The notes below the pieces were generated by a model. It had not been told where the DNA came from and searched no databases. It saw nothing but the letters and a program-made list of their open reading frames with translations. A stretch of 64,000 bases of DNA from Candidatus Omnitrophota bacterium (GTDB lineage Bacteria; Omnitrophota; Gorgyraeia; 2-01-FULL-45-10), in the NCBI GenBank assembly GCA_020057115.1, contig JAGVGJ010000039.1, positions 52,806 through 116,805 on the forward strand, given 5' to 3'. A program made the translations under genes and the position numbers. Position 1 is the first letter of the stretch; every line of letters begins with the position of its first letter. Of the stretch, positions 36,088-57,237 are shown one piece after another.

Positions 36088-36615
36088 ATGCAAGATATGA
36101 AAATCGGAAGACCGCCAATGTTCTTTGTGCTTATAGGCATATCTTGCGCAGTTTTATCGTGTGCCGTATCGGCCAGGGCTACAGCCGCGGGCGCTGGCGG
36201 CGAAGAGCCGCGCAGGTCCCTAGTCAAAGCCACAGGGACGGGATATATCTCACGGGACGCCCGAGACCCGAGACAGGCCAAGTTACTCGCCAGGCGGGCC
36301 GCGATCATTGACGGATACAGGAAGCTCTCGATCTCCCTCGGGGAGATAACAACATATATGAACGACAATGATGCAGTGGTGGAGAAGAGCGGATTTATAA
36401 GAGGAGCAAAAGTGCTGGGCGTCCGCTACCTGGATGGCGGGAAGGTTGAGGCGGATGTGGGCGTGGGCATAGGCATTACGAGCGAAGCTCGGGAGAAGAT
36501 CTCCGGAGAGGGCCATGCGGTTGTCTATAGCGGGAAGACGCTCGGCTCCAAAGGAAGAGTGATAACTAAAGAGGAATGGGTTGAATTGACAAACAAGAAA
36601 GGGGTGTCCGAATGA
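36088..36615 (+). CDS. LPP20-like secreted protein (one LPP20 domain)
   Basis: Signal peptide, then KATGTGY...ARRAAIIDGYRKL...GAKVLGVRYLDGGKVEADV (LPP20 pattern). Confidence 0.6.
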   Translation: MQDMKIGRPPMFFVLIGISCAVLSCAVSARATAAGAGGEEPRRSLVKATGTGYISRDARDPRQAKLLARRAAIIDGYRKLSISLGEITTYMNDNDAVVEKSGFIRGAKVLGVRYLDGGKVEADVGVGIGITSEAREKISGEGHAVVYSGKTLGSKGRVITKEEWVELTNKKGVSE

Positions 36616-37427: not shown

Positions 37428-37442
37428 GCAGGGAGATAGAAC

Positions 37443-38564: not shown

Positions 38565-38580
38565 AACGGAGGAGGAGTGT

Positions 38581-39528
38581 ATGAATAAGAAGTTTTTTAT
38601 CATGACATGCGCGCTATGCTGCGTGTTATGCCTGCTGCCTTTAGATTCTTACGCAAGATCGAAAAATGAGCAGGTTGAGGAGATGTCGGCTTTAAAAGGG
38701 CCGAAAAAGACGATAGCCGTCATGGAATTCGAGAACAAGGCCGGAGCGGATTCGCAATGGCAGCTGGGCACGGGCATGGCCGAGATGCTTACAACAGCGC
38801 TTGTCAATACGGGCAGGTTCATAGTCGTTGAGCGCCAGGCAGTCACGGATGTCCTGAAAGAACAGGATTTCGGAGCGAGCGGCAGGACGACGGAAGTTGG
38901 CGCGGCAAAGATAGGCAAGATATTGAATTCGCAGATACTTGTAAGAGGGGCCATAACGGAATTCAGCAATCAAACATCCGGCGGGGATTCCGGCATAGGA
39001 TATATGGGCGTATCGCTCGGCATGTCCAGCTCGAAAGCCCACGTAGCCGTCAATATACGCATATTCGACTCGGTTACCGGAGAAGTGCTCGACTCGATGC
39101 GCTGCGCAGGCACTGCTAAGTCGAGCGGGGCATCCGTCGGTTATTCGGGTATTGTGAATGTCGGCGGCAGCGGGTTCGCCAAGACCCCGCTCGGAAAGGC
39201 CACCCAGCAAGCCATAGATGAAGCCGTCGCTTTCATTACGGCTAAGATGAACAATGTCCCCTGGTCAGGGAAGGTAGTTTCCGTAAAAGGGGATATCGTA
39301 TTCATCAATGCCGGACAGAACTCGAATGTAAATCCCGGGGACGAATTCACCGTTTATAAGAAGGGCGAGGATATGCTGGATCCTGATACCGGCGCCAGCC
39401 TGGGGTGTGAGATCAAGAAGGCCGGTCGCATACAGATAACGAGCGTGGAAGAGAAATTCTCAAAGGCTAAAGCCGCAGCAGGATCTGCCGCCTCTTTTGC
39501 TACAGGAGATATCATAAAGCTGGATTAA
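38581..39528 (+). CDS. CsgG-family (curli production assembly/transport component-like) lipoprotein
   Basis: Lipoprotein signal (LCCVLCL), TIAVMEFENKAG and SQILVRGAITEF motifs typical of CsgG-like proteins. Confidence 0.7.
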   Translation: MNKKFFIMTCALCCVLCLLPLDSYARSKNEQVEEMSALKGPKKTIAVMEFENKAGADSQWQLGTGMAEMLTTALVNTGRFIVVERQAVTDVLKEQDFGASGRTTEVGAAKIGKILNSQILVRGAITEFSNQTSGGDSGIGYMGVSLGMSSSKAHVAVNIRIFDSVTGEVLDSMRCAGTAKSSGASVGYSGIVNVGGSGFAKTPLGKATQQAIDEAVAFITAKMNNVPWSGKVVSVKGDIVFINAGQNSNVNPGDEFTVYKKGEDMLDPDTGASLGCEIKKAGRIQITSVEEKFSKAKAAAGSAASFATGDIIKLD

Positions 39529-39534
39529 CCGGAT

Positions 39535-40572
39535 CTAGCGCAGGAATTCATCAAAGTCGGCCGGTGTCAGTATCTCCGCTCCCGGGATGCAGTCAGACCC
39601 GAAGATATTCCCGGCGAGCGGGGTAAGGTCCTCTTTTACGCGCGCTCCCGCAGTCTCCATAGTTACGCGCACCGAACCGTCGGAAAAATATTGCGAACTG
39701 GTTTCTCTGGCCCCGCGCACGATCCCCTGGACGGTCGTGCGTATAGTGTCATCCTTCACCGCGAAGTTCTCGACCGTCGTACTGGAGTCTATCACGACCC
39801 CGTATATCTTTTCTGCAAGTTTTCTGTAACAATCGGTCACAGCCGCGCGTTTTGTCGTTACGCGCGCAAGGGCGCCGAACTTTTTGCCGTATTCGTCATC
39901 CGTCATCTCGACCGGAGGCCCTGAAGACGCCGCGCTCACGACCTCTTTTTCCAATATGGCTTTTGAGAGGATCCCGGAGCCCCTTGCGGTTATTATAGCC
40001 TTATCCCACGGCGAGATCTCGCGCTCCTCGCACTCTTTTATCAGGACATACTTATTTGCCTCATCCTTGCTCCGCAGGTCTACGGAGCTCTCCAGGACAC
40101 GGACCGCCGTAACAGGCCTGTCTTTTAAGACGAGCACCTCGTATTTCGTTCCGCGGGCGCCGGTCGTGCCTTGAGGCGTTTTGACGGTGAAGTCGGACTT
40201 TCCGGCTAATGACTTCAATTTTATCAGCAGGTCTCCATGGGACATCGACAGCTCGATCAGCTTGACCATGGACGCGAACGTCACCTCGGAGTTCTCGTTT
40301 ATCTTTACGCTCGATGCGCCGAAACTTATTTCGCACGAGCCGCCGCCCTGGGTCCTTACTATATCATTGGCCCGGATCGTACAAGGGATCGTCATATCCT
40401 GCCAGGAGTTCTTCTCGGCGCTGAATATAGCAACAGGCCCTTGGGCCTTCACCGCTGTGAGGACATAAGTTTCCTGGTCCGTATCCGAGGCAGATACGCG
40501 CAAAACAGCCGCCGCCAGGAATAGGGACGCCAGAAGCAGTATCTTACTAATACGCATATACATATGCATCAT
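39535..40572 (-). CDS. Secreted protein with an N-terminal FecR-like beta-sandwich region and a C-terminal LPP20-like domain
   Basis: Signal peptide, then VRTQGGGSCEISFGASSVKINENSEVTF (FecR-like). The C-terminus carries KRAAVTDCYRKLAEKIYGVVIDSSTTVENF...GSVRVTMET. Confidence 0.55.
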   Translation of the reverse strand: MMHMYMRISKILLLASLFLAAAVLRVSASDTDQETYVLTAVKAQGPVAIFSAEKNSWQDMTIPCTIRANDIVRTQGGGSCEISFGASSVKINENSEVTFASMVKLIELSMSHGDLLIKLKSLAGKSDFTVKTPQGTTGARGTKYEVLVLKDRPVTAVRVLESSVDLRSKDEANKYVLIKECEEREISPWDKAIITARGSGILSKAILEKEVVSAASSGPPVEMTDDEYGKKFGALARVTTKRAAVTDCYRKLAEKIYGVVIDSSTTVENFAVKDDTIRTTVQGIVRGARETSSQYFSDGSVRVTMETAGARVKEDLTPLAGNIFGSDCIPGAEILTPADFDEFLR

Positions 40573-41530
40573 CCTGGTATCTGTAGTTCCCCAGACATTG
40601 ATTAGCCCACCCGGATACCTGTACTGGCGTCAGCGGCCGCCAGAACCCGAATCCCAGGCCGAAGCCGGTGCCGTAGAAGCGCGAATAGCCAGGGTAGTCG
40701 TAGTAATTCCTGAAGGCTGTGTAATACTGCTGGTCCTTTTTATCCTTCTTCTCGATCGCGGCGAGGTATTCGCGTTTACTCTTTATGTCGCTATCGGCCG
40801 ACGCGAGCATGGCCTTCTGGGTTTCCACGCTTACCTTATCGGGGCCGGCAATGCTTTCGCCGTATGGCGTCCAGCCGGGAGGCGGGGGAGCGGTTGGCTT
40901 TCCTGAGCCGCCGAACTTCTTGGCCATATCCACGCACTCTTTATTTATGTCCGGGAACCCAAGTTCTTTAGCGGTCTCACCCAGGGTCAACGCGGCCATT
41001 TCACTGCTCGTGCCCTTAACTAGCTCCTTCGCCGATGTTAGCGCTTTTTTAGCAGCCTGCTTCTCGCCAATATTTGAGTATATCTTGGCTATCTCTATAA
41101 GACCGCGCCAATCCTTAGCGGCTAATGTCAGGGGCAGTGCTTTTGCAAGAGAAGAAGACGCATTCTTCTTAGGACCCAGCTTCTCAGGAAGGACCATGTA
41201 ACCATATGCTACCGAGACAAGTCCCCTCCAGTCCTTCTGCGAACTTGCCAGGGCGCGAGCCTCGTTAAAAGGACCTGCGGCATCCTCAGGTCTTCCCAGG
41301 GCTGAAAATGCATTCCCGGCGTCCACGAATCCTTTCCAGCTTGAGCATTTTTTGGCATATTCGAGGCTCTTCGTAAAGTTGCCCAGAGCCCCGTCAATAT
41401 CGTTTTTGCTGGCGGCGAGATATCCGCGGCCCAGCTCATTTTCCATCTTGTCGGAATCGGTATCTTTGGCGATAGCAGGTTGAACAAATAGGAATATTAC
41501 GGCAAGGATAATGATGAAATTTTTTGGCAT
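40547..41530 (-). CDS. Secreted TPR/SEL1-like repeat protein with a Gly/Tyr-rich C-terminus
   Basis: The likely start is MPKNFIIILAV. Repeated W(K/R)GL...A..Y...G helical repeats. C-terminal YGTGFGLGFGFW. Confidence 0.5.
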   Translation of the reverse strand: MPKNFIIILAVIFLFVQPAIAKDTDSDKMENELGRGYLAASKNDIDGALGNFTKSLEYAKKCSSWKGFVDAGNAFSALGRPEDAAGPFNEARALASSQKDWRGLVSVAYGYMVLPEKLGPKKNASSSLAKALPLTLAAKDWRGLIEIAKIYSNIGEKQAAKKALTSAKELVKGTSSEMAALTLGETAKELGFPDINKECVDMAKKFGGSGKPTAPPPPGWTPYGESIAGPDKVSVETQKAMLASADSDIKSKREYLAAIEKKDKKDQQYYTAFRNYYDYPGYSRFYGTGFGLGFGFWRPLTPVQVSGWANQCLGNYRYQDDAYVYAY

Positions 41531-41663
41531 AGTGCCCTCCCTTTTTAATATAAATGACATAGATAAAGGCGTTTGTCAACGATTTATTGTAGCAGCATAA
41601 ACCTGATATTTGAATAATTTACATTATTAAAGGTTAAGGAAAAAAAAGGAAGATAAATTTTTA

Positions 41664-41691
41664 TTGACTTAACTATCACTTGTGATATAAT
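41664..41691 (+). promoter_or_regulatory. Strong sigma70-like promoter with an extended -10, driving the giant gene
   Basis: ttgact (41664-41669), a 16-nt spacer, then TGaTATAAT (41683-41691). The promoter lies in an AT-rich divergent region. Confidence 0.5.
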
Positions 41692-41734
41692 TGATTATCA
41701 AATTACAAAAATATAGAAGAGGCTATCCTTAAGA

Positions 41735-44700
41735 ATGCGAAACACTATTTGGTTCAAAACAATCTGCATGCTTTTGGCGGCGGCGTTTTTGTCTTTAGAT
41801 GTCGCCTGGGCATACCCGCCTGACCGGATGGAGCCTTCCAGGCATAACCTTGCGCCAGAGTCGATATTCGGCGAGAGAGTGATGACTGATGGCACCAGGG
41901 CGCGCAAGGCCGATCTGCTCAAAGAGGAGGAATTAGCCGGATGCGTGATGAGCGTAGCCGTCCTCTTGTTCCGCGACCGCACGCCCGTAACTCGCCTGGA
42001 AACTACGCTTAGCCCCGAGTTTAAGAAGTCCATTGACGGCATAGACCTTTCGAAAGTCACTGCAGCTACCATAAAAGACAATAAGCTTGATCTCATCCCT
42101 CTGGAAGATGACAGGCTGATACCCAAAGACCAGATAGCGGGCATCCCCTACAAGAAAGACGGTAAATATTATTATATTCAAATAACGCCAAAAGGCAGCC
42201 CTGTCGCAGGGCGGCTTATCGGAAAGGCGTGGCCTATATCAGATATGTATGAGATAAGCGTATATGCCCCTGACGCATTGGTCACTATGCCTGTCAGGAG
42301 CACTGACGCCGGTATTGTGGAAACCGCAGAAGAGGTCGCGAGATCTCCGGAAGCTGTTATTCCGCCATCCATGGCTCCTCCGAGCGCGCCTACCGTTAAG
42401 ATGCCGGAAGCCTCCAGAAATCCGCCAGGCACTACATCATACTCGTTCACTTTCCCGGCCGCGCTGGCATTCTTGGTCCCGATCTTTGAAACAGCCAAAA
42501 ATTTTATAGCGGAGCATCCTTTCATTTCGGCTGGGGCCGGAATTGCCGCAGGAGCTGTTGTAGGGATGCTCGCATATCGTAAATTTTTGCGCATGAAAAG
42601 ATTCGCCGCCGGATCCTTCAGTAATGAAAAAGAGGCCGCTCTTACGCAGATATTTGATGACCTCGCGGATGTGGAAGATAAGACAAACAATGTAACAGGA
42701 GACAAAAAGAGAGTAGAGGCAAAAGAAAAAACAGCCGTTGTCATCGGAGCCGGGAGGATAGGACGCGGCCTGATAGGCAAGCTCCTCAATGATTCCGGTT
42801 ACAAAATAACATTTGTCAACAGGAGCTCCGGAATAGTCGATGCTTTAAATAGAGACGGCGGTTATAACCTTCAGATAGTGGGAAATGACGGGAGCGTGAT
42901 ATCCAGGCGCATAGGCAACGTGATCGCCATAGCAAAGTCAGATACAAACGGCGTAACCAATGCTATCTATGATACAGATACGGTGTTCCTCGCCGTATTC
43001 GACCAGGATTTTGATGACGTCTCTTCCGTGATAGCTAAAGGAATAGAGAATAGGCTGGCGGGAGGCGTGAGGCGGCCTATCAACGTCATAGTCGTCTCGA
43101 ACAGGTTCTCCGCGAAACACGTTGTAAGGGATGCCATATTGCGTCATGTCTCGCCCATGATGAGGACCGATGCGGACGCGCTCCTGGGGGTCGTTGATAC
43201 GGCGACATTCGATATAATACCCGGGATCCCGGACTTATTGGCCGAAAAAGACCCGAGCCTGATACAAGTATACAGCGACATGCATCTGTTTGCGGATAAT
43301 AGCGGATTCAGGGGAGAGCTTTTAAGGTTAAAAGGCATCGATATGACCGATAATATCAAGGATATAAAACTCAGGAAGCTATTCGTATATAACGGCGCGC
43401 ACGCGATATGCGCGTACCTCGGGTATCTTAAGAGGTACGAATATATACAGGAGGCGATAAATGATCCGGCCATAAGAGGCGTTGTGGGAGCCGCTTTCGA
43501 AGAGATGAGGGGCCTTTTGGGAGAGTGGCCTGATTATGATGAGTTTACCAGGTTTGTTATCGCAAGACTTGCCGATAAAAGGTTCAATGACAAACTCGAG
43601 AGAGTCGCAAAGGACCCTATAAGAAAACTGTCAAGTTACGACCGTCTCGTAAGCCCGGCTCTATTGGCCATTAAAAATAACAAAACCCCGCACGCTTATG
43701 CCATGGGCATAGCCGCGGCGCTTCTCTATGATGACCCGGCAGACGAAGAGGCCGTAAAGATGCAGGCAAGACTCGCTGAAGAAGGCGGCATTGGCAAGGT
43801 CATAAGCGAGATATGCGGTCTCCGGTCGCAATATAAAGATGAGTTTGTTCTCATCGATCTCATCAGAACGAAGATCGCCATAGCCCGCAGAGAGAAGGCA
43901 AAGGCAGAGCTTGCAAAATCTATGAAGGCCGGAATATTTGATGAAGATAATTATGACAAGGTGGTGCACGTCTTGGGCAAGGTGCCTAAAAATGTCAAGC
44001 TTGTAGTATGGGACTTTGACAATGTCATAGGCAATACGCAGAAGCTCTATGCCGAGGCGACAGCCATAGTCTATTGGAAGATAAGAAAAGGCATCAAAGA
44101 AGCGGACGCTATTCCCGAAGATAATGATCCTGTATATCGGAAAGGAAAAGACCTCTATAACCAATTTTTGGCCGAAGGCCCGGCTACTTTCCGCACCATA
44201 CAGAAAGCTATCGAAGAGGTGAAGTCGGAAAAGGAGCTTGCGTCCGGCCTGCTTCCCGAAGCTGAATATTACAAACAGTTCGAGGCGATAAGAGAGGCCA
44301 TGTTCAGCGTGCTCGACCCATCAGACTTTTTTAATCCCAGGATGAGAGAGCTATTGTGTATCGTAAGGGCGCTCAATCCAGACGTAGAATTTTGCGTGAA
44401 TACGGCTCTTGAAAAGAGTTTCTTTGAGCGGCAGTTCATGAGGCCCGGATTCAGGGGTTACTTCACTTCCGCCAAAGCGCTCAGCGTAGAGCAGAGGAAT
44501 GCCGGGAATATAGAGGAGGCGAAAGCGCGTAATCTGATGGTGCTGCTCCAGGAGAAAGGCGTCAAGCCCGAAGAGACCGTAGTCATAGATGATTCGAGCA
44601 GGTTCATGAATACGGTGAGGATGAGAGCTCCTGATATATTCAGGATAGGGGTCGCCACAGATATCAGGTTCGGCAAGAACCTTATCGATAAGGAAGTCAA

Positions 44701-47700
44701 CGTAGTATTCATGAACATGAAGCCTACGCCGGAAAAATTGATGATGCTTGGCCTTAACAAGAAGCTCCTCGAGAGCAATCAGGACGGCTCAAGCGTAATA
44801 AAGAGCGTAGCCCCCGATGTCTATATGATCAGGTCTGAACCCAAGGTCCAGCACGATCCCGGCGCCATAGATTGGGATATAGAGACCGCGTTCAGCAAGA
44901 AGCACGGGATGCAGCCTGTGAGGAGCGAAACGGCGAGAAAGGTCATGGAGCAGTCGTTCGAAGCGCTCGTCAGAAAAGGCAGCATAAAACCAAATGTCAT
45001 AGTGAACATAAAAGATTTCAGCCCTAATGCGGTCGCTGTCTACATGAGTAAATTGAAGGAGGTCTCGGAATATTATAACGGGAATGTCACTTTCGTGCTG
45101 GTAGTGGAAAACAACATAGAGCGCTTCCGGAACGACATGCCGAGCATGTTCAGCGCGGTGGCTAAAGCGCAGGCTGCTATAAGAGAGGCCGCAAAAGCGA
45201 AGAATGCGGATAGCGAGCATTTCGGGACCGAATACACGATGATGATAGCGGACGGCGGCCGGAAGATGAGGAACATGCCTCTCACGCTGGCGTATCTGTA
45301 CGAAGGCCTTATGCCGTACGAGAAGGACAGGATAAGGCTCCAGGAGGTATTCGTAAGGACCGGGGCGCTTCTCATGCAGATGCCGAAGTGCGGCGTGGAC
45401 GACATGGCGGTCGTCGGCTCCGACAGCGTATTCAACTCGGAGAAGATGGTGACAGCGGAGGGAGGGCCGCTGGCTTCTCTTAGGCAAAGAGCCCTGGTGG
45501 TCCCGGTGGTCCAGTATGATGCCAAAGAAGATATGTCGACAAAGATAGTCCGCGCTGCAGACGCCCAAGACAAGACGCAATATGTCCTTGTCAAGCCAGG
45601 AAAAGAGCTCTTGGATAAATACAGGCTCAAATATAAAGATAGCAGCTATTCGGGCCTCCACTTCCTTGCCATATGGAAGAAGTCCTTCCTCTCAGATTTT
45701 CTTCAGGTCATGCAGGGCGAGAAGATGGATAACGGAGATACGTTCTTAGAGCTCCCGTGCGACATGTTCATGCTCTTCTTCCAGAGCGTATTGATGCCGG
45801 AGGATGAGTGGGCAGCTTTAAGGCCAAGCGGGATATCGGAAAGGGACTGGAAGAAGGCAAGAGAACTTTCGACAAGATGCTTCGGCCAGGACCTGGCCCA
45901 GGTCAGGTTCGTGAAGATGGAGGCGGAAGAAGCCTTTACCGACGAGGGCATCCTTGAGACTTCACTGCCCAGATTCAGCCACCTTATAACGGATGACAGG
46001 AATGTCGTGAAGAAGAGCCCTGATGTGGATTTTGCCAATGCCACGGCCGCCAGCCTTGATCACGTGATCGTAAAAGGCAGCGGCAAAATAGTATTCGGCA
46101 AGAACGTGAAATTGTCGAAGGTCATCATAGAACTTAACGGCGAGGAGCTCAACATACCGGACAACTGGACGATCGTTAACTCATATTTGAGCGGCGATTG
46201 CAAATTTAAAGAGTGCAACTCCTGTGTAGAAAGAGATGCTGCCAAGGCGCCGCGTCCGGGATACATCTTGAACGGGGTCTTTGTCAAAGATGGCAAGCTT
46301 AAGCCTTTGGCCGGCATGACATTCGAAGATGATACGGCATCAACGGTCCTTTACACTATACACGGCGAGCAGATAGTCGTGACCGTATCGATAGATGCAT
46401 CCAAAGCTGAACTCGACAAGATGAGGTTCACCAAGCGCAATCGCAGTCTTATGGGCCTTCAGGTAGATGCAGATATACAGGCCAATATAAGGGCTAAAGA
46501 TGCGATAGAAAAAGCCGTAAGAGAAGAGATACTGTCGATGCCAAAGATATTTCCTCTGTCGAAGGATGCCGTTAGGAAAAGGGTCTCCATAGGAACGAAG
46601 AAGTTCGATAAGCCGGTCGAGTATGCGGAAATAATAAAGACCCTGGAGGATCGCATCAAAAGAGACAGCAAGGGTGAAGATCAATACTGGGTCACTATCG
46701 AAGGCATACAGGGCGCAGGCAAGACATATATGATCAATGAGCTTAAGAGAGTGCTGGAGGCGCGCGGTAAGAACGTGGTAGTGATAGAAGAGGACTGGTA
46801 TCACAGATCGCGTATGGAGCGAGACCACGAGATGGATTCTCTTGATAAGCCCGAGAAAAAAACAAGGATATATCACGCTGAGAACTGGCACAAGTGGGGC
46901 AGATTAAGAGACGACATTAAAGATGTAAAGGATGCAGCTATGTCCGGCAATGAAGTCACATTGACCCTGAAAGATCTGTATAATAGGGATGATGAAGGCC
47001 AGCTGACCAGGGTTGAGAAATTGGCCATAAAACCCGGTACCATATTCATATACTCCGGATTCTACGTATCCGACAAGGGGAAGGTTGATATAGATTCCGA
47101 TCTTTCGATCTATATAGGCATAAATCAGGAAGATTCGCTTATAGTTAAACGCGAAAGAGACAAATGGAGGCCCCGCGGTGAAGTGTGGCAGCTTGACGAT
47201 GTGATATATAGACCGGCTTTCGAGCAATATATAAGCACATATGATCCGGCAGCCTCCTCCGACATAGTGATCAGATTCGATAATATAGATAACCGCAAGA
47301 AGGCGAGCTTTGTAATGCCTCTTACGAAAGCCGAATATAAAGATTATTATGATAATGAAAAGAAAGAGGCGGCCAAGAGAGAGCGCGAGATACAGAAGCA
47401 GGCGAGATCTCAAATAACCGAAAAACTTAAAGATATGATGAGATCCTCCAATAATACCAAGGCCATGTTTGAGGAAGCGGCCAACAGGGTGGTGAGTCTA
47501 TTGCGCAGCGAAAGCATGCTAAAGGGCCCCTCATCCGACCATGAGATCAAAAGACAGATGACTGCGGCCGAGATCAGGGAGAGGGCGGAGAAGATCATAG
47601 TAGCGGCCAAGGCGGCAGATAGATCCAGGCTGCCGCCTGATTTCGGTGAATATGTCGCTCTTCTGAAAGATAATCTGGAGCGCCTTGAGCCAGATGCCAT

Positions 47701-48328
47701 AACGGCAAGCCTCATAGTGAAGGCCAGGAGGGCGTCAAGGGAAGGCAAGAAGCTTATAATCGGCATCGAGACGGACTGGATACCGGGGATCAATGATAAA
47801 TCAAGCCTCCAGCATAATACCGTAAGCCCGCTCATAAAGGCCGTAGAGGCGGTGGCAGCGACATTACGCTCTCTTAATCTTGAGGATGTCGTAGAGGTTG
47901 TGCATTCAGACGCAAAGAACCTGGCGGGAGAGATCATGAAGAGGGCTGGCAATGATACGTCAAACCTTTCGAACGTGGTGATCCTCGCCTCAAGCAATAC
48001 GGTGGATTCCCCGGGATTTGAGATATTAAAGAGCACCCCGCTGGAGGAGAGGGCTTTCATAGCCGCGGTAGATACGACCGAGCTCGAAAAATGGTATAAA
48101 GAGAATGAATATTCGACCAAACAGCCGGATGTCAAGATAGTTGAGATGCTATCGATAGCCCTGGAGTTATCTGTCGGGAATATTGAATTCTCAAAATTAC
48201 CGATAGTCCTCGGTTATGATGCCGGTAAGAGGTTAGTTATATTCCTGCCCAGGGCCGTTTCCAAGGACATAGAAGAGCTTAAGAAGATCTATGATCTGCA
48301 GATAGGCGCTTTGAGAAGGATGGCATAA
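41735..48328 (+). CDS. Giant multidomain protein (2197 aa): signal/TM region, mannitol-1-phosphate dehydrogenase-like domain, HAD phosphatase-like domain, a region resembling hexapeptide/LbH repeats, P-loop nucleoside-kinase-like domain, and a C-terminal domain of unknown function
   Basis: N-terminal signal-like hydrophobic segment and a second TM segment. VIGAGRIGRGLIGKLL...NGAHAICAYLGY (MtlD family). VVWDFDNVIG...VVIDDSS (HAD motifs I and IV). VTIEGIQGAGKTY (Walker A, dNK/Tmk-like). DHVIVKGSGKIVFGKNVKLSKVIIELNG (LbH-like). Confidence 0.7.
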   Translation: MRNTIWFKTICMLLAAAFLSLDVAWAYPPDRMEPSRHNLAPESIFGERVMTDGTRARKADLLKEEELAGCVMSVAVLLFRDRTPVTRLETTLSPEFKKSIDGIDLSKVTAATIKDNKLDLIPLEDDRLIPKDQIAGIPYKKDGKYYYIQITPKGSPVAGRLIGKAWPISDMYEISVYAPDALVTMPVRSTDAGIVETAEEVARSPEAVIPPSMAPPSAPTVKMPEASRNPPGTTSYSFTFPAALAFLVPIFETAKNFIAEHPFISAGAGIAAGAVVGMLAYRKFLRMKRFAAGSFSNEKEAALTQIFDDLADVEDKTNNVTGDKKRVEAKEKTAVVIGAGRIGRGLIGKLLNDSGYKITFVNRSSGIVDALNRDGGYNLQIVGNDGSVISRRIGNVIAIAKSDTNGVTNAIYDTDTVFLAVFDQDFDDVSSVIAKGIENRLAGGVRRPINVIVVSNRFSAKHVVRDAILRHVSPMMRTDADALLGVVDTATFDIIPGIPDLLAEKDPSLIQVYSDMHLFADNSGFRGELLRLKGIDMTDNIKDIKLRKLFVYNGAHAICAYLGYLKRYEYIQEAINDPAIRGVVGAAFEEMRGLLGEWPDYDEFTRFVIARLADKRFNDKLERVAKDPIRKLSSYDRLVSPALLAIKNNKTPHAYAMGIAAALLYDDPADEEAVKMQARLAEEGGIGKVISEICGLRSQYKDEFVLIDLIRTKIAIARREKAKAELAKSMKAGIFDEDNYDKVVHVLGKVPKNVKLVVWDFDNVIGNTQKLYAEATAIVYWKIRKGIKEADAIPEDNDPVYRKGKDLYNQFLAEGPATFRTIQKAIEEVKSEKELASGLLPEAEYYKQFEAIREAMFSVLDPSDFFNPRMRELLCIVRALNPDVEFCVNTALEKSFFERQFMRPGFRGYFTSAKALSVEQRNAGNIEEAKARNLMVLLQEKGVKPEETVVIDDSSRFMNTVRMRAPDIFRIGVATDIRFGKNLIDKEVNVVFMNMKPTPEKLMMLGLNKKLLESNQDGSSVIKSVAPDVYMIRSEPKVQHDPGAIDWDIETAFSKKHGMQPVRSETARKVMEQSFEALVRKGSIKPNVIVNIKDFSPNAVAVYMSKLKEVSEYYNGNVTFVLVVENNIERFRNDMPSMFSAVAKAQAAIREAAKAKNADSEHFGTEYTMMIADGGRKMRNMPLTLAYLYEGLMPYEKDRIRLQEVFVRTGALLMQMPKCGVDDMAVVGSDSVFNSEKMVTAEGGPLASLRQRALVVPVVQYDAKEDMSTKIVRAADAQDKTQYVLVKPGKELLDKYRLKYKDSSYSGLHFLAIWKKSFLSDFLQVMQGEKMDNGDTFLELPCDMFMLFFQSVLMPEDEWAALRPSGISERDWKKARELSTRCFGQDLAQVRFVKMEAEEAFTDEGILETSLPRFSHLITDDRNVVKKSPDVDFANATAASLDHVIVKGSGKIVFGKNVKLSKVIIELNGEELNIPDNWTIVNSYLSGDCKFKECNSCVERDAAKAPRPGYILNGVFVKDGKLKPLAGMTFEDDTASTVLYTIHGEQIVVTVSIDASKAELDKMRFTKRNRSLMGLQVDADIQANIRAKDAIEKAVREEILSMPKIFPLSKDAVRKRVSIGTKKFDKPVEYAEIIKTLEDRIKRDSKGEDQYWVTIEGIQGAGKTYMINELKRVLEARGKNVVVIEEDWYHRSRMERDHEMDSLDKPEKKTRIYHAENWHKWGRLRDDIKDVKDAAMSGNEVTLTLKDLYNRDDEGQLTRVEKLAIKPGTIFIYSGFYVSDKGKVDIDSDLSIYIGINQEDSLIVKRERDKWRPRGEVWQLDDVIYRPAFEQYISTYDPAASSDIVIRFDNIDNRKKASFVMPLTKAEYKDYYDNEKKEAAKREREIQKQARSQITEKLKDMMRSSNNTKAMFEEAANRVVSLLRSESMLKGPSSDHEIKRQMTAAEIRERAEKIIVAAKAADRSRLPPDFGEYVALLKDNLERLEPDAITASLIVKARRASREGKKLIIGIETDWIPGINDKSSLQHNTVSPLIKAVEAVAATLRSLNLEDVVEVVHSDAKNLAGEIMKRAGNDTSNLSNVVILASSNTVDSPGFEILKSTPLEERAFIAAVDTTELEKWYKENEYSTKQPDVKIVEMLSIALELSVGNIEFSKLPIVLGYDAGKRLVIFLPRAVSKDIEELKKIYDLQIGALRRMA
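42254..42312 (-). pseudogene. Antisense relic fragment of an mrpD/nuoL-family gene embedded in the 5' region of the giant gene
   Basis: The minus strand reads ccggcgtcagtgctcctgacaggcatagtgaccaatgcgtcaggggcatatacgcttat, about 85% identical to 54871-54929 of the MrpD-like gene (ccggcgtcagtgctcctggcaggcatagttaccaaggtatcaggcatatatacccttat). It translates to PASVLLTGIVTNASGAYTLI versus PASVLLAGIVTKVSGIYTLI. Confidence 0.6.
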
Positions 48329-48355: not shown

Positions 48356-48383
48356 GTTGACAAAAATATATCAGGTTGTATAA
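48356..48383 (+). promoter_or_regulatory. Near-consensus sigma70 promoter upstream of hppA
   Basis: ttgaca (48356-48361), a 16-nt spacer, then tataat (48378-48383). Confidence 0.55.
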
Positions 48384-48406
48384 TACGACCTAACGCATAA
48401 GACTGT

Positions 48407-48499
48407 GATGTCTTCTAGTATAGTTATGCTAGAAGACATTTTATTTTTACTATACGGGCCTCTTTGATTAGAAGGCATATTATAGAGGCCCTGTTTTTT
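48407..48499 (+). terminator. Two tandem terminator-like hairpins in the hppA leader; a possible ~100-nt sRNA or attenuator
   Basis: Hairpin 1 is atgtcttctag/ctagaagacat (48407-48438) followed by tttatttttact. Hairpin 2 is gggcctct/agaggccc (48455-48490) followed by tgttttttt. Confidence 0.5.
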
Positions 48500-48522: not shown

Positions 48523-50847
48523 ATGGTTTACGGACTCACATTGTTCGAGCAGGTCGCCATATGGAGCGTCTTGGGAATAGCGCTGCTAGGTCTTCTTTAC
48601 GCCCTATTCCTGCGCAAGCAGATACTTGCGGAAGATAAGGGGACTGCCAAGATGCAGGAGGTTTGGAATGCCATCCGCGAAGGCGCAGACGCCTACCTTA
48701 AGAAACAGCTAGTCTCCATCCTTCCCTTGATAGGCATACTCACATTTGCTCTATTCTTCTCAGTTTATATAGTTCCGCCTTCCCAGGAGGCCATGCAGAG
48801 GTTCGCCGGCCACTCCACAGACCAGGTGCGCCTTATTATAGGTATAGGAAGAGCCATTGCATTCATCATGGGCGCCATATTCTCACTGCTGGTCGGCCAG
48901 CTTGGCATGAGGATGGCTGTCCAGGCCAATGTCCGCGTTGCTTCAGCATCAAAAAGGTCTTTTGGGGATGCGCTGCGCATAGCCTACCGCGCGGGTACGA
49001 TCACAGGCATGTTGACTGACGGCCTGGGACTCTTCGGCGGCACCATCATATTCATAATATTCGGCATAGCTGCTCCTGATGCCCTTCTCGGTTTCGGTTT
49101 CGGCGGAACACTCTTAGCGCTCTTCATGAGGGTGGGCGGCGGTATCTTCACAAAGGCAGCTGACGTAGGCGCTGACCTCGTGGGTAAGGTCGAGGCAGGC
49201 ATACCCGAAGATGATCCGCGTAACCCGGCGGTTATAGCGGACCTTGTCGGTGACAATGTCGGCGACTGCGCAGGTATGGCAGCTGACATATTCGAATCAT
49301 ACGAAGTCACGATCGTTTCCGCCTTGATACTGGGGCTTGCGCTATACCACATCACCCATAGGCTGGAGTGGATAGTCTATCCGCTACTTGTCCGCGGCAT
49401 AGGCGTCATCTGCTCTATTATAGGTACTTATGCGGTCAGGAGCAGCCCTTCCAAGAGCGGCAATGCCATGGTCGCCATCTTTAAAGGCTTCCTGACATCG
49501 GCGGTTATTTCGATAGCTATGTTCGGCGTGCTTGCATTCTTCTATATGAAGAACACGCCGGGCGGATGGTGGAGACCGTTCCTTGCCACTACTGTCGGCG
49601 TATTATTGGCCATCATGATAGACCGCCTTACCGAATATTTCACCGGCACGCACGGAAGGCCTGTCCGTGAGATAAGAAAGTCCACCAATACAGGCGCTGC
49701 TACGACGATACTTTCAGGTCTTGCGGTGGGCCTCGAGTCTTCCGTATGGTCCATACTTGTTATTGCCGGCACGATATTCTCTTCGATATTGATATTTGGG
49801 ACTATGTCAGGGGTGAGCGGCGTAGACAGGGTTGCATACATCCTTTACGGCGTTGCGATGACCGGTATCGGCATGTTGACGCTGACAGGCAACAACGTCG
49901 CGATGGACTCATTCGGTCCCATAGCCGATAATGCTAACGGCATAGGCGAGATGGCATGGCACGGCCAGACTGACAAAGATACTAAGGATGCCCGCCAGAT
50001 CATGGCTGACCTGGACGGCGTAGGCAATACCACGAAGGCCATTACAAAGGGGGTCGCCATAGGCTCGGCCGTTATAGCTGCAGTTTCGCTATTTGGCGCA
50101 TATATGGTCGATGTCTCAAAAGTCCAGGCGGCTATGGGCGTTGCGGCGGCCGACCAGCTTAGTGCTGTCGGTATCCGCGTATCAGTTCCTCAAGTTTTCG
50201 TCGGCATGCTTATCGGCGGGGCGCTTCCGTGGTTATTCTCCTCTTTCTGCATACAGGCTGTCAGCCGCGCTGCTTCATTAATAGTGGAAGAGGTCCGCCG
50301 CCAGTTCAAGATGGGCGTCCTGGAGGGCAAAGTGAAGCCTGATTATAAACAGGCCGTTGCTATTTCCACTACCGCCGCCCAGAAAGAGCTTATAAGCCTT
50401 GCGGCGATGAGCGTCATTGCTCCGATACTCGTAGGGCTCGTTCTTCAGGTAGAGGCGCTAGGCGGATTCCTTGCAGGCATAATCCTTTCAGGCCAGCTCT
50501 TAGCGGTATTCATGTCAAATGCGGGCGGCGCGTGGGATAATGCGAAAAAGACGATCGAGGATGAACCTCGCGATACAGCCAAAAATACAGGCAAGGGTTC
50601 GGAGCGCCATAAGGCAAGCGTTGTCGGTGATACCGTTGGAGATCCGCTAAAGGATACAGCGGGCCCGGCATTGAATCCAATGATCAAGGTTGTAAACCTT
50701 GTATCGGTCATCATAGCTCCGATAGTCGTTCAGTATAACAAACTAGGTCTAGGCGGATGGCTCGTAGTCGCAGGGCTTTCGGCTGCGATGGTGTGGGCTA
50801 TAATGCATTCCAAGAAGCCGACGCCTGAATTAGCGCCGGTAAAGTAG
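48523..50847 (+). CDS. hppA: Membrane-bound H+/Na+-translocating pyrophosphatase (V-PPase)
   Basis: 774 aa, polytopic. Signature motifs GGIFTKAADVGADLVGKVE, DNVGDCAGMAAD and GDTVGDPLKDTAGPALN. SD aaggag lies 10 nt upstream. Confidence 0.95.
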   Translation: MVYGLTLFEQVAIWSVLGIALLGLLYALFLRKQILAEDKGTAKMQEVWNAIREGADAYLKKQLVSILPLIGILTFALFFSVYIVPPSQEAMQRFAGHSTDQVRLIIGIGRAIAFIMGAIFSLLVGQLGMRMAVQANVRVASASKRSFGDALRIAYRAGTITGMLTDGLGLFGGTIIFIIFGIAAPDALLGFGFGGTLLALFMRVGGGIFTKAADVGADLVGKVEAGIPEDDPRNPAVIADLVGDNVGDCAGMAADIFESYEVTIVSALILGLALYHITHRLEWIVYPLLVRGIGVICSIIGTYAVRSSPSKSGNAMVAIFKGFLTSAVISIAMFGVLAFFYMKNTPGGWWRPFLATTVGVLLAIMIDRLTEYFTGTHGRPVREIRKSTNTGAATTILSGLAVGLESSVWSILVIAGTIFSSILIFGTMSGVSGVDRVAYILYGVAMTGIGMLTLTGNNVAMDSFGPIADNANGIGEMAWHGQTDKDTKDARQIMADLDGVGNTTKAITKGVAIGSAVIAAVSLFGAYMVDVSKVQAAMGVAAADQLSAVGIRVSVPQVFVGMLIGGALPWLFSSFCIQAVSRAASLIVEEVRRQFKMGVLEGKVKPDYKQAVAISTTAAQKELISLAAMSVIAPILVGLVLQVEALGGFLAGIILSGQLLAVFMSNAGGAWDNAKKTIEDEPRDTAKNTGKGSERHKASVVGDTVGDPLKDTAGPALNPMIKVVNLVSVIIAPIVVQYNKLGLGGWLVVAGLSAAMVWAIMHSKKPTPELAPVK

Positions 50848-50916: not shown

Positions 50917-52353
50917 ATGAAGAATATGATCCTTTTGTCAGCCATATTCGTTCCGGTAATAGGTTCATTTATATTGCCTGTTATCGGAAAGATCTCTGAG
51001 CGCGCGAGAAATGGTCTCGCGCTCTGTTTTGTCCTCGTATCTTTAGTCGGATCATCACTCCTGATACCGTCTGTCCTGGCAGGCAATGCCGTTACATTCT
51101 CAAGAGCCCTGCCGGTAGGGTTCAATATGGTATTTACCGCAGACTCGCTTGCGGTATTCATGGCTATCTGTTCTTCTTTAGTGGGCGCCGTCATAGTACT
51201 GTTCTCGTTCGGTTATATAAGCCATTATGAGAACAGGAACGAATATTACCTTATGGTCGTGCTGTTCCTGGGCGCCATGATGGGGATCATATTTTCGGCC
51301 AACCTTATATGCATGTTCCTCTTCTGGGAGATAACGGCGATAGCGAGCTGGAGGCTGATAGGTTTCTTCAGGGGCAAGAACGACGTCTTGAAGGCGGACA
51401 AAGCGTTCCTTGTGACAGTATTCGGAGCGCTCGTCATGCTGCTGGGTTTTGTGCTCATCGCTCAACAGGCGGGATCGTTCGACCTCTCGGTTATAAAAGA
51501 GACATTTAAGGCAAGCCCCGTACCCGATATAGCGGTCCTGCTGATACTTATCGGCATACTCACGAAATCAGCCACATTGCCTTTCCACACATGGCTTCCG
51601 GACGCCGGCGTGGCGCCATCGCCTGTCACCGCACTCCTGCACGCCGCAGTCTTAGTCAAGATAGGCGTCTATGTATTCGCAAGGTTATTCATAGTGACAT
51701 TCACCTTTAGCCAGATGTGGCATGTGATAGTGCCGTGGATCGCCGCCTCCAGCGCTCTCGTATCGGCAGGCGCAGCGCTCATCGACACCGACTTAAAGAG
51801 GATCATAGCTTATTCTACGGTGAGCCAGATAGCTTTTATATTCCTTGGCCTTGCGATAGGCGGGCCGCTCGGGGTCGCGGGAGCGATGCTCTACATATTG
51901 ATGCATGGTATCGCCAAGGGCGGGCTATTCCTTTGCGCCGGCATAATCGAGCAGAACACGCACACGAAAGATATCACGAAGATGGGGGGGCTTGTCGCGA
52001 CGATGCCTGTCACGGCAGTGGCTTTCTTGTTCTGCGCCTTCTCAGTCATGGGCATCCCGCCGTTCGGAGGATTCTTCTCAAAGTATATGGTCATGTCGAG
52101 CGTTTTCACAAGCGGGCAAATGGCCCTGGCGTTGACATTTTTAGTCGGAGCGTTCCTGACGATACTCTACATGTTCAGGTTGTTTAATATGATATTTATG
52201 GGCGACGCTCAAGGCGCTCCTGCAAAAGAGGGGAGCCGGGTCATGGTCGTGTCTGTCGCGATACTCGGCGCCTTATCATTGCTTGGCGGATTATATATAA
52301 TCTATCCTTCAAATTATGTGCAGATAGCCGTAAAACAGATGCTCGGGATGTAA
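50917..52353 (+). CDS. MrpD/NuoN-like antiporter subunit (complex 2)
   Basis: 478 aa with FHTWLPDAGVAPSP and TVSQIAFI motifs. Confidence 0.85.
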   Translation: MKNMILLSAIFVPVIGSFILPVIGKISERARNGLALCFVLVSLVGSSLLIPSVLAGNAVTFSRALPVGFNMVFTADSLAVFMAICSSLVGAVIVLFSFGYISHYENRNEYYLMVVLFLGAMMGIIFSANLICMFLFWEITAIASWRLIGFFRGKNDVLKADKAFLVTVFGALVMLLGFVLIAQQAGSFDLSVIKETFKASPVPDIAVLLILIGILTKSATLPFHTWLPDAGVAPSPVTALLHAAVLVKIGVYVFARLFIVTFTFSQMWHVIVPWIAASSALVSAGAALIDTDLKRIIAYSTVSQIAFIFLGLAIGGPLGVAGAMLYILMHGIAKGGLFLCAGIIEQNTHTKDITKMGGLVATMPVTAVAFLFCAFSVMGIPPFGGFFSKYMVMSSVFTSGQMALALTFLVGAFLTILYMFRLFNMIFMGDAQGAPAKEGSRVMVVSVAILGALSLLGGLYIIYPSNYVQIAVKQMLGM

Positions 52354-52354
52354 G

Positions 52355-54175: not shown

Positions 54176-54185
54176 GAGACAATAA

Positions 54186-56417: not shown

Positions 56418-56420
56418 TAT

Positions 56421-56756: not shown

Positions 56757-56758
56757 AG

Positions 56759-57232: not shown

Positions 57233-57237
57233 ATCAA

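Follow-up and report, generated by a model that had tools for sequence, protein, structure and literature searches.

The window, by which we mean the whole 64,000-nucleotide stretch of DNA that was analysed, comes from an Omnitrophota-type bacterium. On its plus strand, which carries all features discussed here, lies an open reading frame (41735..48328) that starts with ATG and encodes 2197 amino acids followed by a stop codon, matching the coordinates in a preliminary description of the region. The start at 41735 is backed by alignment: residues 1-28 are kept in the homologs P0002 and P0003 and in the wider family, and the starts called in the databases, giving 2179 and 2186 aa, fall within this conserved N-terminal helix. 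Upstream is a sigma-70-type promoter-like site (41664..41691) with TTGACT, a 16-nt spacer, TATAAT and a TG extension (11 of 12 consensus matches); both hexamers and the TG are kept in the homologous Logan contigs L002 and L003. The preliminary description spoke of a very strong extended -10 promoter. The extended -10 match and its conservation stand, but the call is a consensus match, which is no proof of strength. A putative ribosome-binding site, AGAAGAGG (41715..41722), can be read from the sequence 12 nt upstream of the ATG.

The 2197-aa open reading frame is a real gene. The 2197 open codons in DNA of ~50% GC exclude a chance origin, and conservation of the full-length architecture in at least four other assemblies shows that the frame is no frameshift chimera. 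The homologs P0002 (three independent assemblies, 53% identity), P0003 (45% identity) and P0005 share this architecture from end to end, uninterrupted, at 45-56% identity and with matching domain borders; the frameshifted concatenation of several genes that the preliminary description had raised is thus not what the relatives show. The chance that adjacent genes were joined by a frameshift, or that the contig is chimeric, is vanishingly small: nothing was found in its favor beyond a length unusual for a metabolic protein, conservation already refutes it, and the N-cap and C-cap modules described below mark true ends, as they do in 87 other proteins.

Four enzyme-like domains

The first enzyme-like domain resembles mannitol-1-phosphate 5-dehydrogenase (MtlD; residues 330-705, 42722..43849) and matches 3H2Z at E 1.5e-57. 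Pfam Mannitol_dh covers residues 333-529 (57.1 bits, cut-off 27) and Mannitol_dh_C residues 541-677 (91.5 bits, cut-off 30.7), and both GAGRIGRG (residues 338-345) and the catalytic K548-x4-N553-x2-H556 are invariant in the alignment. NCBIfam MtlD models align to residues 333-700 at E 5e-65, with a score under every equivalog cut-off (220 versus 368 bits), so the substrate may differ. A HAD-IA-like phosphatase domain with a large cap insert follows (residues 751-1010, 43985..44764). Its Pfam match is weak (22.7 bits, cut-off 26.4); its family profile matches 3KBB, a sugar-phosphate phosphatase of the HAD-IA type, with E 1.4e-5, and motifs I-IV (D760xD762, T890, K930 and D952-D953) are invariant in three full-length proteins.

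Residues 1026-1640 (44810..46654) have no Pfam match. An AF2 model (pLDDT 83.1, pTM 0.84) comprises an N-terminal subdomain, a catalytic core with an ADGGRKxRNxP loop (residues 1172-1182) and S-D1230-S, of which GG-x3-R and the Asp are conserved, and, around residues 1431-1486, a left-handed beta-helix that also has weak sequence matches to the UGPase and GlmU beta-helices. The best Foldseek matches are 9IIT and 9IIS (E 3e-10 and 3e-9, probability 1.0), from the Bacteroides fragilis enzyme FKP (L-fucokinase and GDP-fucose pyrophosphorylase), followed by ADP-glucose and GDP-mannose pyrophosphorylases. On this model we confidently assign the region to the NDP-sugar pyrophosphorylase fold, its nearest match being FKP's GDP-fucose pyrophosphorylase half, and predict a sugar- or polyol-phosphate nucleotidyltransferase. 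Last comes a P-loop kinase of the PRK/uridine-kinase family (residues 1641-1860, 46655..47314), with a Walker A motif, GIQGAGKT (residues 1657-1664), a Pfam PRK match to the isolated domain (27.8 bits, cut-off 22) and a profile that aligns full-length to phosphoribulokinases and 1RZ3.

The MtlD-like, HAD phosphatase-like and nucleoside- or uridine-kinase-like P-loop domains named in the preliminary description are borne out, the first by Pfam scores above cut-off and an intact K-x4-N-x2-H, the second by its four invariant motifs and the 3KBB profile match, and the third by Walker A and a PRK score above cut-off. The putative hexapeptide-repeat (LbH) region corresponds to the modelled beta-helix, the tail of the pyrophosphorylase fold. 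What had been counted as a single block of ~900 unassigned residues instead comprises the pyrophosphorylase (615 aa) and two end modules found throughout the family.

The same combination recurs. In 12 further near-complete proteins the pyrophosphorylase invariably sits next to the kinase. Ten of them contain an MtlD-like domain, in varying domain orders, and nine a phosphatase of HAD or His type; P0006 has phosphatase, pyrophosphorylase and kinase without MtlD, and P0011 is without a phosphatase. This repeated co-fusion suggests that the four activities belong together as a unit. The claim that the domain order has no well-known precedent was therefore too strong: a dozen relatives likewise combine these activities in one chain, and two preprints describe long multi-enzyme proteins bearing signal peptides or transmembrane (TM) segments as a trait of Omnitrophota (bioRxiv 10.1101/2023.11.21.568195; 10.64898/2026.06.07.730766).

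Family-wide end modules

The N-cap module spans residues 1-185 and consists of a hydrophobic helix (residues 1-28, 41735..41818), a signal peptide or signal anchor by hydropathy and family alignment that ends in a conserved LDxxWA|YP motif, and a ~150-aa domain (residues 29-185, 41819..42289). Local phmmer and HMM searches place it at the N-terminus of 87 of the 151 retrieved proteins. The C-cap (residues 1976-2197, 47660..48325) ends at most 11 aa from the terminus in 138 of the 151. Including the preceding helical part it runs from ~1870 to 2197, and measures ~220-320 aa across the family; the helical linker before it (residues 1861-1975, 47315..47659) is poorly conserved here. Nearly all of 615 library matches fall in the C-cap part, which is always extreme C-terminal, in ~600 protein clusters, just as the N-cap is always N-terminal. 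Its AF2 model (pLDDT 86.1) is alpha/beta, with no significant Foldseek match in the PDB and no PDB sequence or Pfam match; the N-cap likewise has no PDB sequence match at E<=10 and no Pfam match. These two modules, absent from the preliminary description, are the most unusual feature of the protein.

Between the caps, family members carry unrelated cargo, including HEAT repeats, radical SAM, B12, ROK and guanylate kinase domains, and C-caps up to 92% identical border cargo without detectable similarity. The caps bracket interchangeable enzyme cargo in many proteins besides the 2197-aa one, the longest seen having 5,572 aa. All 26 genomic loci found for the family are in Omnitrophota-type MAGs, and the family is apparently large and restricted to this phylum. 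The caps may have a common localization or assembly role in all members, rather than a catalytic one specific to the 2197-aa protein.

Hydropathy identifies hydrophobic segments at residues 5-28 and 262-281. The first agrees with the N-terminal secretion or anchor signal proposed earlier, though it is not merely generic, since FKxIxxxLxxxFxxLDxxWAYP is kept across the family. In our reading, A-W-A ahead of Y27 could fit the -3/-1 rule for signal peptidase I. The second lies in a Pro-rich linker and membrane segment (residues 186-329, 42290..42721), overlaps a weak Pfam match to the DUF883_C glycine zipper (residues 254-282) and is followed by RKFLRMKR. This region is poorly conserved, being 82% gapped in P0003, which is without the TM segment.

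Proposed function and topology

Hydropathy, flanking charges and the glycine-zipper match suggest a topology in which the N-helix carries the N-cap across the inner membrane and the TM helix, with its positively charged C-flank, brings the chain back, so that the four NAD(H)-, ATP- or NTP-dependent enzymes and the C-cap would be tethered at the cytoplasmic face. Among the 87 capped proteins, 23 have no strongly hydrophobic segment besides the N-helix, and the positive-inside rule would then place cofactor-dependent enzymes outside the cell; with P0003 lacking the TM segment too, the model may not extend to every family member.

We put at roughly 55% the probability that the protein is a membrane-tethered, cytoplasm-facing module making mannitol or mannitol-1-phosphate and a nucleotide-activated derivative, a chemistry suggested by domain families and co-fusion. 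The M1PDH-like reductase would convert fructose-6-phosphate to mannitol-1-phosphate, from which the HAD phosphatase could release free mannitol, as algal and Acinetobacter M1PDH/M1Pase pairs do. HAD and His-type phosphatases are both known as mannitol-1-phosphatases (bioRxiv 10.1101/2020.07.01.179531). Kinase and pyrophosphorylase would form an FKP-like phosphorylate-then-activate salvage unit, most simply taking mannitol to mannitol-1-phosphate and on to NDP-mannitol and PPi. Analogous to the formation of CDP-ribitol and CDP-glycerol, NDP-mannitol could feed polyol-phosphate or glycosyl transfer elsewhere. No mention of CDP-mannitol was found in the literature searched, and no transferase able to use an activated polyol among the neighboring genes. 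Because mannitol is symmetric, kinase and phosphatase acting on one compound would, if unregulated, run a futile cycle. The compatible-solute or sugar-nucleotide biosynthesis first suggested for this protein fits such a module, the beta-helix appearing to belong to a genuine NDP-sugar pyrophosphorylase fold.

The futile cycle is escaped if the product is a glycosyl-mannitol compatible solute, an alternative we regard as possible though unlikely. Kinase and pyrophosphorylase would turn a free sugar into an NDP-hexose, MtlD would make mannitol-1-phosphate as acceptor, a separate glycosyltransferase would join the two and the HAD domain would then dephosphorylate the product, on the model of sucrose-6-phosphate, trehalose-6-phosphate, glucosylglycerol-phosphate and mannosyl-3-phosphoglycerate synthesis. 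Dephosphorylation by a HAD enzyme after transfer to a phosphorylated acceptor is an established general scheme, which would explain a phosphatase beside the pyrophosphorylase-kinase cassette even without MtlD, as in P0006, and the nearest folds are hexose-1-phosphate enzymes (FKP, AGPase, GMPP). However, neither the protein nor its neighboring genes revealed a glycosyltransferase, and anomeric sugar-1-kinases are not known from the PRK/uridine-kinase family.

A catabolic or salvage role is improbable. Bacterial MtlD is classically catabolic, and the kinase could phosphorylate host or environmental mannitol or fructose, with MtlD oxidizing mannitol-1-phosphate to fructose-6-phosphate for glycolysis and the pyrophosphorylase channeling some of the flux into a nucleotide sugar. 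Such uptake would suit the proposal that Omnitrophota are host-dependent nanobacteria (PMC10066038), but an MtlD-fused phosphatase marks the synthetic direction in every characterized case (bioRxiv 10.1101/2020.07.01.179531) and no transporter adjoins the gene.

We give similarly little weight to export, in which the complete chain, or everything past the N-helix, would act on the cell's surface or within a host or prey cell, the caps being signals by which diverse enzyme effectors are secreted or translocated. A conserved N-end, variable passenger and conserved C-end is the layout of several sorting systems, among them autotransporters, T9SS proteins and sortase substrates; the N-terminus, with its AxA-type site, resembles a Sec signal, and in P0003 and about a quarter of the capped proteins no further segment is strongly hydrophobic. 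The two preprints also report topology predictions in which many domains of the long Omnitrophota proteins are extracellular (bioRxiv 10.1101/2023.11.21.568195; 10.64898/2026.06.07.730766). Against export, the cargo requires NAD(H), ATP and NTPs, radical SAM and B12 cargo elsewhere in the family requires cytoplasmic cofactors and reductants, the TM helix at residues 262-281 with its +5 C-flank predicts cytoplasmic cargo in the 2197-aa protein, and the C-cap folds as a soluble alpha/beta domain rather than a beta-barrel or beta-sandwich sorting domain.

Comparison with known systems

The Omnitrophota long proteins and Archaeovorins of the two preprints come from the same phylum, likewise combine an N-terminal signal-like helix and TM segments with many unrelated metabolic domains per chain, and have HEAT, radical SAM, HAD, ROK and kinase content in common with the cap family. 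The catalogued proteins are at least 10-30 kaa, compared with 2.2 kaa here, and the passages searched make no mention of a shared N-cap or C-cap (bioRxiv 10.1101/2023.11.21.568195; 10.64898/2026.06.07.730766). Autotransporters, T9SS C-terminal domain proteins and sortase or exosortase substrates also have a signal-like N-terminus, a variable middle, a conserved C-terminal module and many paralogues per lineage. In contrast to these, the C-cap has ~220 aa in an alpha/beta fold behind a long helix, with no beta-barrel, beta-sandwich or short motif, a conserved ~150-aa domain forms part of the N-end, and the passengers are cofactor-dependent enzymes of cytoplasmic type.

Fusions of M1PDH and M1Pase, as in Acinetobacter baylyi MtlD (PDB 7OCN) and Micromonas pusilla, likewise pair an M1PDH-family domain with a HAD domain; in the 2197-aa protein the catalytic motif of the one and all four motifs of the other are intact. 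The Micromonas mannitol-synthesis fusion has the order found here, M1PDH then HAD (bioRxiv 10.1101/2020.07.01.179531). The parallel that the preliminary description drew with Acinetobacter holds for function, but not for order, the HAD domain being N-terminal there, or for sequence: that enzyme matched the MtlD C-domain only, and the NCBIfam bifunctional-MtlD model NF046057 scores 84 bits where its cut-off is 800. Unlike these fusions, the 2197-aa protein adds two further enzymes and two end modules, and a His-phosphatase can replace HAD in its relatives.

FKP, whose N1/N2 subdomains and metal-binding Asp136 have been described (PMC11982464), has an N-terminal domain whose fold is common to residues 1026-1640 over ~600 columns, each with a nucleotidyltransferase core, a short left-handed beta-helix and a cap. 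Both proteins place a pyrophosphorylase before a kinase in one chain, as a phosphorylate-then-activate unit. Sequence identity over residues 1026-1640 is ~9%, however, the P-loop kinase of PRK/uridine-kinase type is non-homologous to the GHMP kinase of FKP, and the cassette here sits inside a membrane-anchored four-enzyme protein.

The gene and its four enzyme domains

An unbroken ORF (41735..48328, plus strand; ATG, 2197 codons and a stop) in DNA of about 50% GC encodes the protein studied here, which we call the megaprotein. Three relatives have the identical domain order at full length: P0002 (53% identity, 2173 aa, found in three independent assemblies), P0003 (45% identity, 2109 aa, from a Candidatus Omnitrophica MAG) and P0005 (2017 aa). 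Identity to P0002 peaks in the enzyme domains (60-64%) and is at its minimum in the linkers (11-28%), the pattern expected for a genuine multidomain protein. By these alignments the megaprotein is one gene. The preliminary description had considered a concatenation of several genes by frameshift, and we reject such a chimera given these uninterrupted orthologues of matching domain order.

Public gene models begin later than 41735, by 18 residues at NCBI (P0001, 2179 aa) and by 11 at JGI (P0004, 2186 aa, named just 'mannitol-1-phosphate 5-dehydrogenase'), and so within the conserved N-terminal helix (41735..41789). Conservation of residues 1-28, in P0002 and P0003 as well as in the wider family that shares the ends of this protein, makes the ATG at 41735 the better start. 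Upstream on the same strand is a sigma-70-like site that matches consensus (TTGACT-16-TATAAT preceded by TG, 41664..41691); both hexamers and the TG are kept in two Logan contigs with homologous loci (L002 and L003), where much other upstream DNA has diverged. Rfam detected no RNA element at the gene.

The first enzyme domain (residues 330-705) was delimited by Pfam, NCBIfam, alignment to the solved MtlD 3H2Z (E 1.5e-57) and invariant motifs. An N-terminal dinucleotide-binding glycine loop and a catalytic K-x4-N-x2-H in the C-domain define the long-chain mannitol dehydrogenase family, and here neither the loop GAGRIGRG (residues 338-345) nor K548-x4-N553-x2-H556 varies among three full-length proteins. 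PF01232 and PF08125 both score above their gathering thresholds (57.1 bits against 27, and 91.5 against 30.7), and the NCBIfam MtlD models align over the full length (E 5e-65), yet under their equivalog cut-offs: the best, NF002646, gives 220 bits against 368. The nearest non-MtlD alternatives score far less (fructuronate reductase, 37 bits). The earlier MtlD-like assignment thus stands, for a full-length but divergent family member with predicted NAD(H)-dependent fructose-6-P/mannitol-1-P activity.

The HAD domain (residues 751-1010) was recognized by its four motifs and a six-sequence family profile. The superfamily motifs I (DxDxT/V), II (T/S), III (K) and IV (DD) read D760-F-D762-N-V, T890, K930 and D952-D953 here and do not change across three full-length proteins, although motif I is FDGVV in one relative, P0013. 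The profile matches 3KBB, a sugar-phosphate phosphatase of the HAD-IA group, at E 1.4e-5, and also the beta-PGM/BT2127 group. These intact motifs bear out the phosphatase-like domain reported earlier, although the Pfam Hydrolase score itself (22.7 bits) is under the cut-off of 26.4.

The third domain is visible mainly through its structure. Pfam assigns no family to residues 1000-1642 even at E<=10, and the pyrophosphorylase belongs to no curated Pfam or NCBIfam family at the sequence level; sequence-level profile matches in the PDB (UGPase, GlmU) fall only on its beta-helix. An AlphaFold2 model of residues 1026-1640, built from 13 homologous segments (alignment A6) found by exhaustive search, is confident (pLDDT 83.1, pTM 0.84). 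In a Foldseek search of the PDB, Bacteroides FKP ranks first through its GDP-fucose pyrophosphorylase half (9IIT, E 3e-10; 9IIS, E 3e-9; probability 1.0 over about 600 columns), followed by ADP-glucose pyrophosphorylases and human GMPPA/B, and most of the 106 matches at E<=1e-3 are NDP-sugar pyrophosphorylases. The model consists of a nucleotidyltransferase fold and then a left-handed beta-helix, as in FKP-NTD, AGPase and GMPP; this layout agrees with the N1/N2 description of FKP-NTD (PMC11982464). The short beta-helix that closes the fold (model strands 412-467) accounts for the LbH-like segment noticed in the preliminary description. Of the roughly 900 residues left unassigned there, residues 1000-1642 do lack a Pfam match, but residues 1026-1640 now have a modelled pyrophosphorylase fold. 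D1173, G1175 and R1179 are invariant in a G-G-x3-R loop, ADGGRKxRNxP (residues 1172-1182), as is S1229-D1230. Judged by eye, these lie in the order expected for the N-terminal NTP loop (G-G-x-G-x-R type) and the metal-binding Asp, which in FKP is Asp136 (PMC11982464).

Immediately after comes a kinase domain (residues 1641-1860), identified by its Walker A (GIQGAGKT), Pfam PRK and profile alignment. PRK (PF00485) reaches 27.8 bits on the isolated domain, above the cut-off of 22, so that the P-loop kinase first suggested from the sequence can be kept; seven of 16 relatives match PRK as well. A 16-sequence profile aligns along its whole length, positions 10-211 with phosphoribulokinases (E 7e-6 to 2e-5) and 11-209 with the uridine-kinase-like 1RZ3 (E 1e-6). 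Equivalog levels are not reached (TIGR00235 udk, 29 bits against 220; PRK equivalog, E 0.04). On these scores the domain belongs to the PRK/uridine-kinase P-loop family, yet is an equivalog of neither uridine kinase nor phosphoribulokinase.

A proposed pathway centred on mannitol-1-phosphate

An exhaustive HMMER profile search with residues 1020-2197, combined with local domain mapping, recovered 12 further near-complete proteins (P0005-P0016). The pyrophosphorylase directly precedes the kinase in all of them, and we refer to this pair as the cassette. An MtlD-like domain is present in 10 of the 12, on either side of the cassette; in P0013 the order is cassette-MtlD-HAD. The phosphatase partner varies. 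P0005, P0006, P0007 and P0013 have the HAD type of the megaprotein, P0008, P0009 and P0012 have a different HAD type, and P0010, P0014 and P0016 have an RHG histidine phosphatase. Known mannitol-1-phosphatases are likewise HAD (Ectocarpus, Acinetobacter, Micromonas) or phosphohistidine enzymes (Eimeria; bioRxiv 10.1101/2020.07.01.179531), so the types found among cassette relatives are the same two unrelated kinds. Of all the evidence, this recurrent co-fusion, irrespective of order, argues most strongly that the four enzymes work in a single pathway with mannitol-1-P at its centre.

The chemistry we infer for the megaprotein would begin with reduction of fructose-6-P to mannitol-1-P by the MtlD-like domain. 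Mannitol could then be released by the HAD domain, and free polyol phosphorylated again by the kinase in a salvage step. Finally, the pyrophosphorylase would convert polyol phosphate and NTP to an NDP-polyol and PPi. The literature searched contained nothing on CDP-mannitol, and nothing relevant on Omnitrophota together with mannitol. The most serious rival draws on the same four domains: the cassette would make an NDP-hexose, mannitol-1-P would be the acceptor, and the HAD domain would finish a glycosyl-mannitol product. If either an NDP-polyol or a glycosyl-mannitol is indeed made, the route would be new and might be of use in chemoenzymatic synthesis.

A gene for a membrane H+/Na+-pyrophosphatase lies directly downstream (48523..50847, plus strand), and a membrane H+-pyrophosphatase would consume PPi. 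We count this adjacency as weak, and reject the gene as an operon partner, because it has a promoter-like site of its own and is absent beside the P0003 orthologue. That site, a perfect consensus (TTGACA-16-TATAAT, 12/12), lies in the pyrophosphatase leader (48357..48440, plus strand) together with a hairpin, which begins 22 nt further on, has a 15-bp stem and a T-rich tail, has no match in Rfam, and could be an attenuator or other regulatory element. Between the window and L002 (7133..9295), the pyrophosphatase keeps 94% amino-acid identity but the adjacent megaprotein only 53-56%, so that the megaprotein evolves much faster than its neighbour.

Several other features of the surroundings were recorded. 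Envelope-type genes occupy 36612..41560 upstream. They encode an LPP20 lipoprotein, a CsgG-like protein that contains FlgT-like parts and, divergently from the megaprotein gene, a FecR+LPP20 protein and a TPR protein. Downstream, 50917..59868 (plus strand) holds a cluster of Mrp-antiporter-like subunits, comprising three Proton_antipo_M proteins and one MbhD-like protein, as well as a NuoH-like subunit and a large subunit that is NiFe-hydrogenase/Complex1_49kDa-like; the whole resembles a membrane-bound complex of the Mbh/Mbx type. A large serine recombinase (Resolvase, Recombinase and zinc-ribbon; 61026..62654, minus strand) overlaps or abuts a tRNA gene (61015..61088), and 61015..62654 could mark the border of an integrated element. 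Further away are a tmRNA gene (24487..24900, minus strand, 172 bits) and the gene of a 1094-aa protein (25718..29002, plus strand), which follows a tRNA; TPR repeats are densely packed in the C-terminal part of this protein. The P0003 locus (L001 10001..16330, Omnitrophica) has neighbours unlike these: a PAP2 phosphatase precedes the orthologue and mreBCD-PBP2 follow it.

End modules shared with unrelated proteins

The exhaustive search reached far beyond cassette proteins, with 615 cluster representatives at E<=1e-3, 154 of them at E<=1e-30, and lengths from 187 to 5,572 aa. Among the matches listed, proteins lacking the cassette align only to profile positions ~850-1168 (residues ~1870-2197), always at the extreme end. 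This C-terminal module, the C-cap, is present in 138 of 151 retrieved proteins, where it stops 0-11 residues short of the C-terminus (median 1). An N-terminal module, the N-cap (residues 1-185), is also N-terminal in 87 of the 151, the rest being mostly short fragments. Word-indexed protein searches were insensitive, returning three matches for the whole megaprotein, none for its C-terminal 328 aa (its own sequence included) and five fragments for a 21-sequence C-cap profile; it was the exhaustive HMMER search that exposed the family.

Between the caps, the cargo is unrelated. Pfam annotation of 31 capped proteins gave HEAT repeats (17), DUF218, radical SAM, guanylate kinase, ROK, CofD, APH, B12-binding, ARMT1-like, FBPase_2, GH2 and others, and no family covering either cap. 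P0042 and P0045 have C-caps 92% identical, N-caps 35% identical and no detectable similarity in cargo; P0021 and P0035 (C-cap 87% identical) also have dissimilar cargo, and many pairs with 70-75% C-cap identity have nothing in common there. By these comparisons the caps behave as modules. The C-cap model is confident (pLDDT 86.1, pTM 0.83) and consists of a long helix, then an alpha/beta layer and a small beta-meander, an architecture on which we reject an autotransporter-like C-terminal barrel or a T9SS CTD. Among its conserved residues are E-T-D-W-I-P-G, S-N-V, L-A-S, Y199 and R204, numbered as in the model. Foldseek found no significant structural neighbour of it in the PDB (best E 0.025, TM 0.25, generic Rossmann-like folds), profiles of the two caps had no PDB sequence matches at E<=10, and PADLOC and PHROGs returned nothing relevant to defence or phage for caps or cassette. 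An 'AKDFxxAHP' hairpin motif was noticed by eye in several members.

One strict peptide pattern, drawn from a six-sequence alignment, located at least 26 C-cap loci in GTDB species representatives, a lower bound that depends on this pattern and is no census. By title, 19 are in Omnitrophota/Omnitrophica MAGs, six in 'uncultured Planctomycetia' bins and one in 'Ca. Makaraimicrobium', and several genomes carry two. Capped genes can stand in tandem: in L026 (2..1020, 'Ca. Makaraimicrobium thalassicum') one gene closes with a C-cap and, ~170 nt further on, the next opens with an N-cap. In the 64-kb window the megaprotein is the only member found.

The caps may lie on opposite sides of the membrane. 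A hydrophobic stretch (residues 5-28) has R2 and K8 ahead and a conserved LDVAWA|YP behind, in which A-W-A before YP fits a signal-peptidase site, in keeping with the N-terminal signal or anchor proposed earlier. The N-cap and a Pro-rich stretch follow, and a second hydrophobic helix (residues 262-281), with a weak glycine-zipper DUF883_C match, is succeeded by RKFLRMKR. Applied to these flanking charges, the positive-inside rule would put the N-cap outside the cytoplasm and keep the four enzymes and the C-cap inside, tethered to the membrane. A caveat is that the Pro-rich linker and TM segment are missing from P0003 (residues 186-329 are 82% gapped there) and that, on a crude hydrophobicity measure, 23 of the 87 proteins with both caps have no second strongly hydrophobic segment. 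Two preprints on Omnitrophota long proteins (bioRxiv 10.1101/2023.11.21.568195; 10.64898/2026.06.07.730766) both note this paradox of enzymes that depend on cofactors and yet are predicted to lie outside the cell.

A more novel reading, to which we give about one chance in four, is that the caps are an undescribed Omnitrophota-specific localization, assembly or export system on hundreds of exchangeable enzyme cargos, and that the megaprotein carries a new nucleotide-activated-mannitol pathway within it. If the caps are such a system, the signal helix with its ectodomain and the C-terminal alpha/beta domain could be common handles, maybe organizing giant proteins as well.

Comparison with known systems

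The uncultured Omnitrophota, nanobacteria that may be predators or parasites, make very long multi-enzyme membrane proteins, which are recognized as a puzzle. A conserved pair of ends, common to roughly 600 protein clusters with unrelated cargo, offers a concrete handle on it. At 2.2 kaa and with a coherent four-enzyme cargo, the megaprotein should also be much easier to express and assay than giant proteins. Multi-enzyme SP/TM long proteins (Archaeovorins; bioRxiv 10.1101/2023.11.21.568195) and 'multi-enzyme metabolic clusters' (bioRxiv 10.64898/2026.06.07.730766) have been described from Omnitrophota. The megaprotein resembles them in its Omnitrophota origin (from named homologues), its hydrophobic segments at residues 5-28 and 262-281 and its four enzyme domains, but at 2,197 aa it is unlike the giant class (>=10-30 kaa), which includes the 39,678-aa protein of Velamenicoccus archaeovorus. 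The searchable text of these preprints and of a further Omnitrophota paper (PMC10066038) makes no mention of the conserved end modules, which is no proof of their novelty.

The order of an M1PDH-like domain (mannitol-1-phosphate dehydrogenase) and then a HAD domain is that of the Micromonas fusion (bioRxiv 10.1101/2020.07.01.179531). In the Acinetobacter bifunctional MtlD, the HAD domain is instead N-terminal to MtlD; membership of that family (NF046057) is rejected on this reversed order and on a score of 84 bits against 800 from a match to the C-domain only. As in FKP, a pyrophosphorylase precedes a kinase in one chain, but the kinase of FKP is a C-terminal GHMP-family domain, which is absent here and replaced by a P-loop kinase, so that membership of FKP proper is rejected. 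By analogy, the cassette is predicted to work like FKP without belonging to its family. Fusions of M1PDH with the corresponding phosphatase, FKP, and Omnitrophota long proteins are thus already known. What is new is the four-enzyme combination, in which a mannitol-synthesis pair is joined to an FKP-like activation cassette with a non-homologous kinase, possibly for new chemistry, and the two uncharacterized end modules that the megaprotein shares with roughly 600 other clusters.
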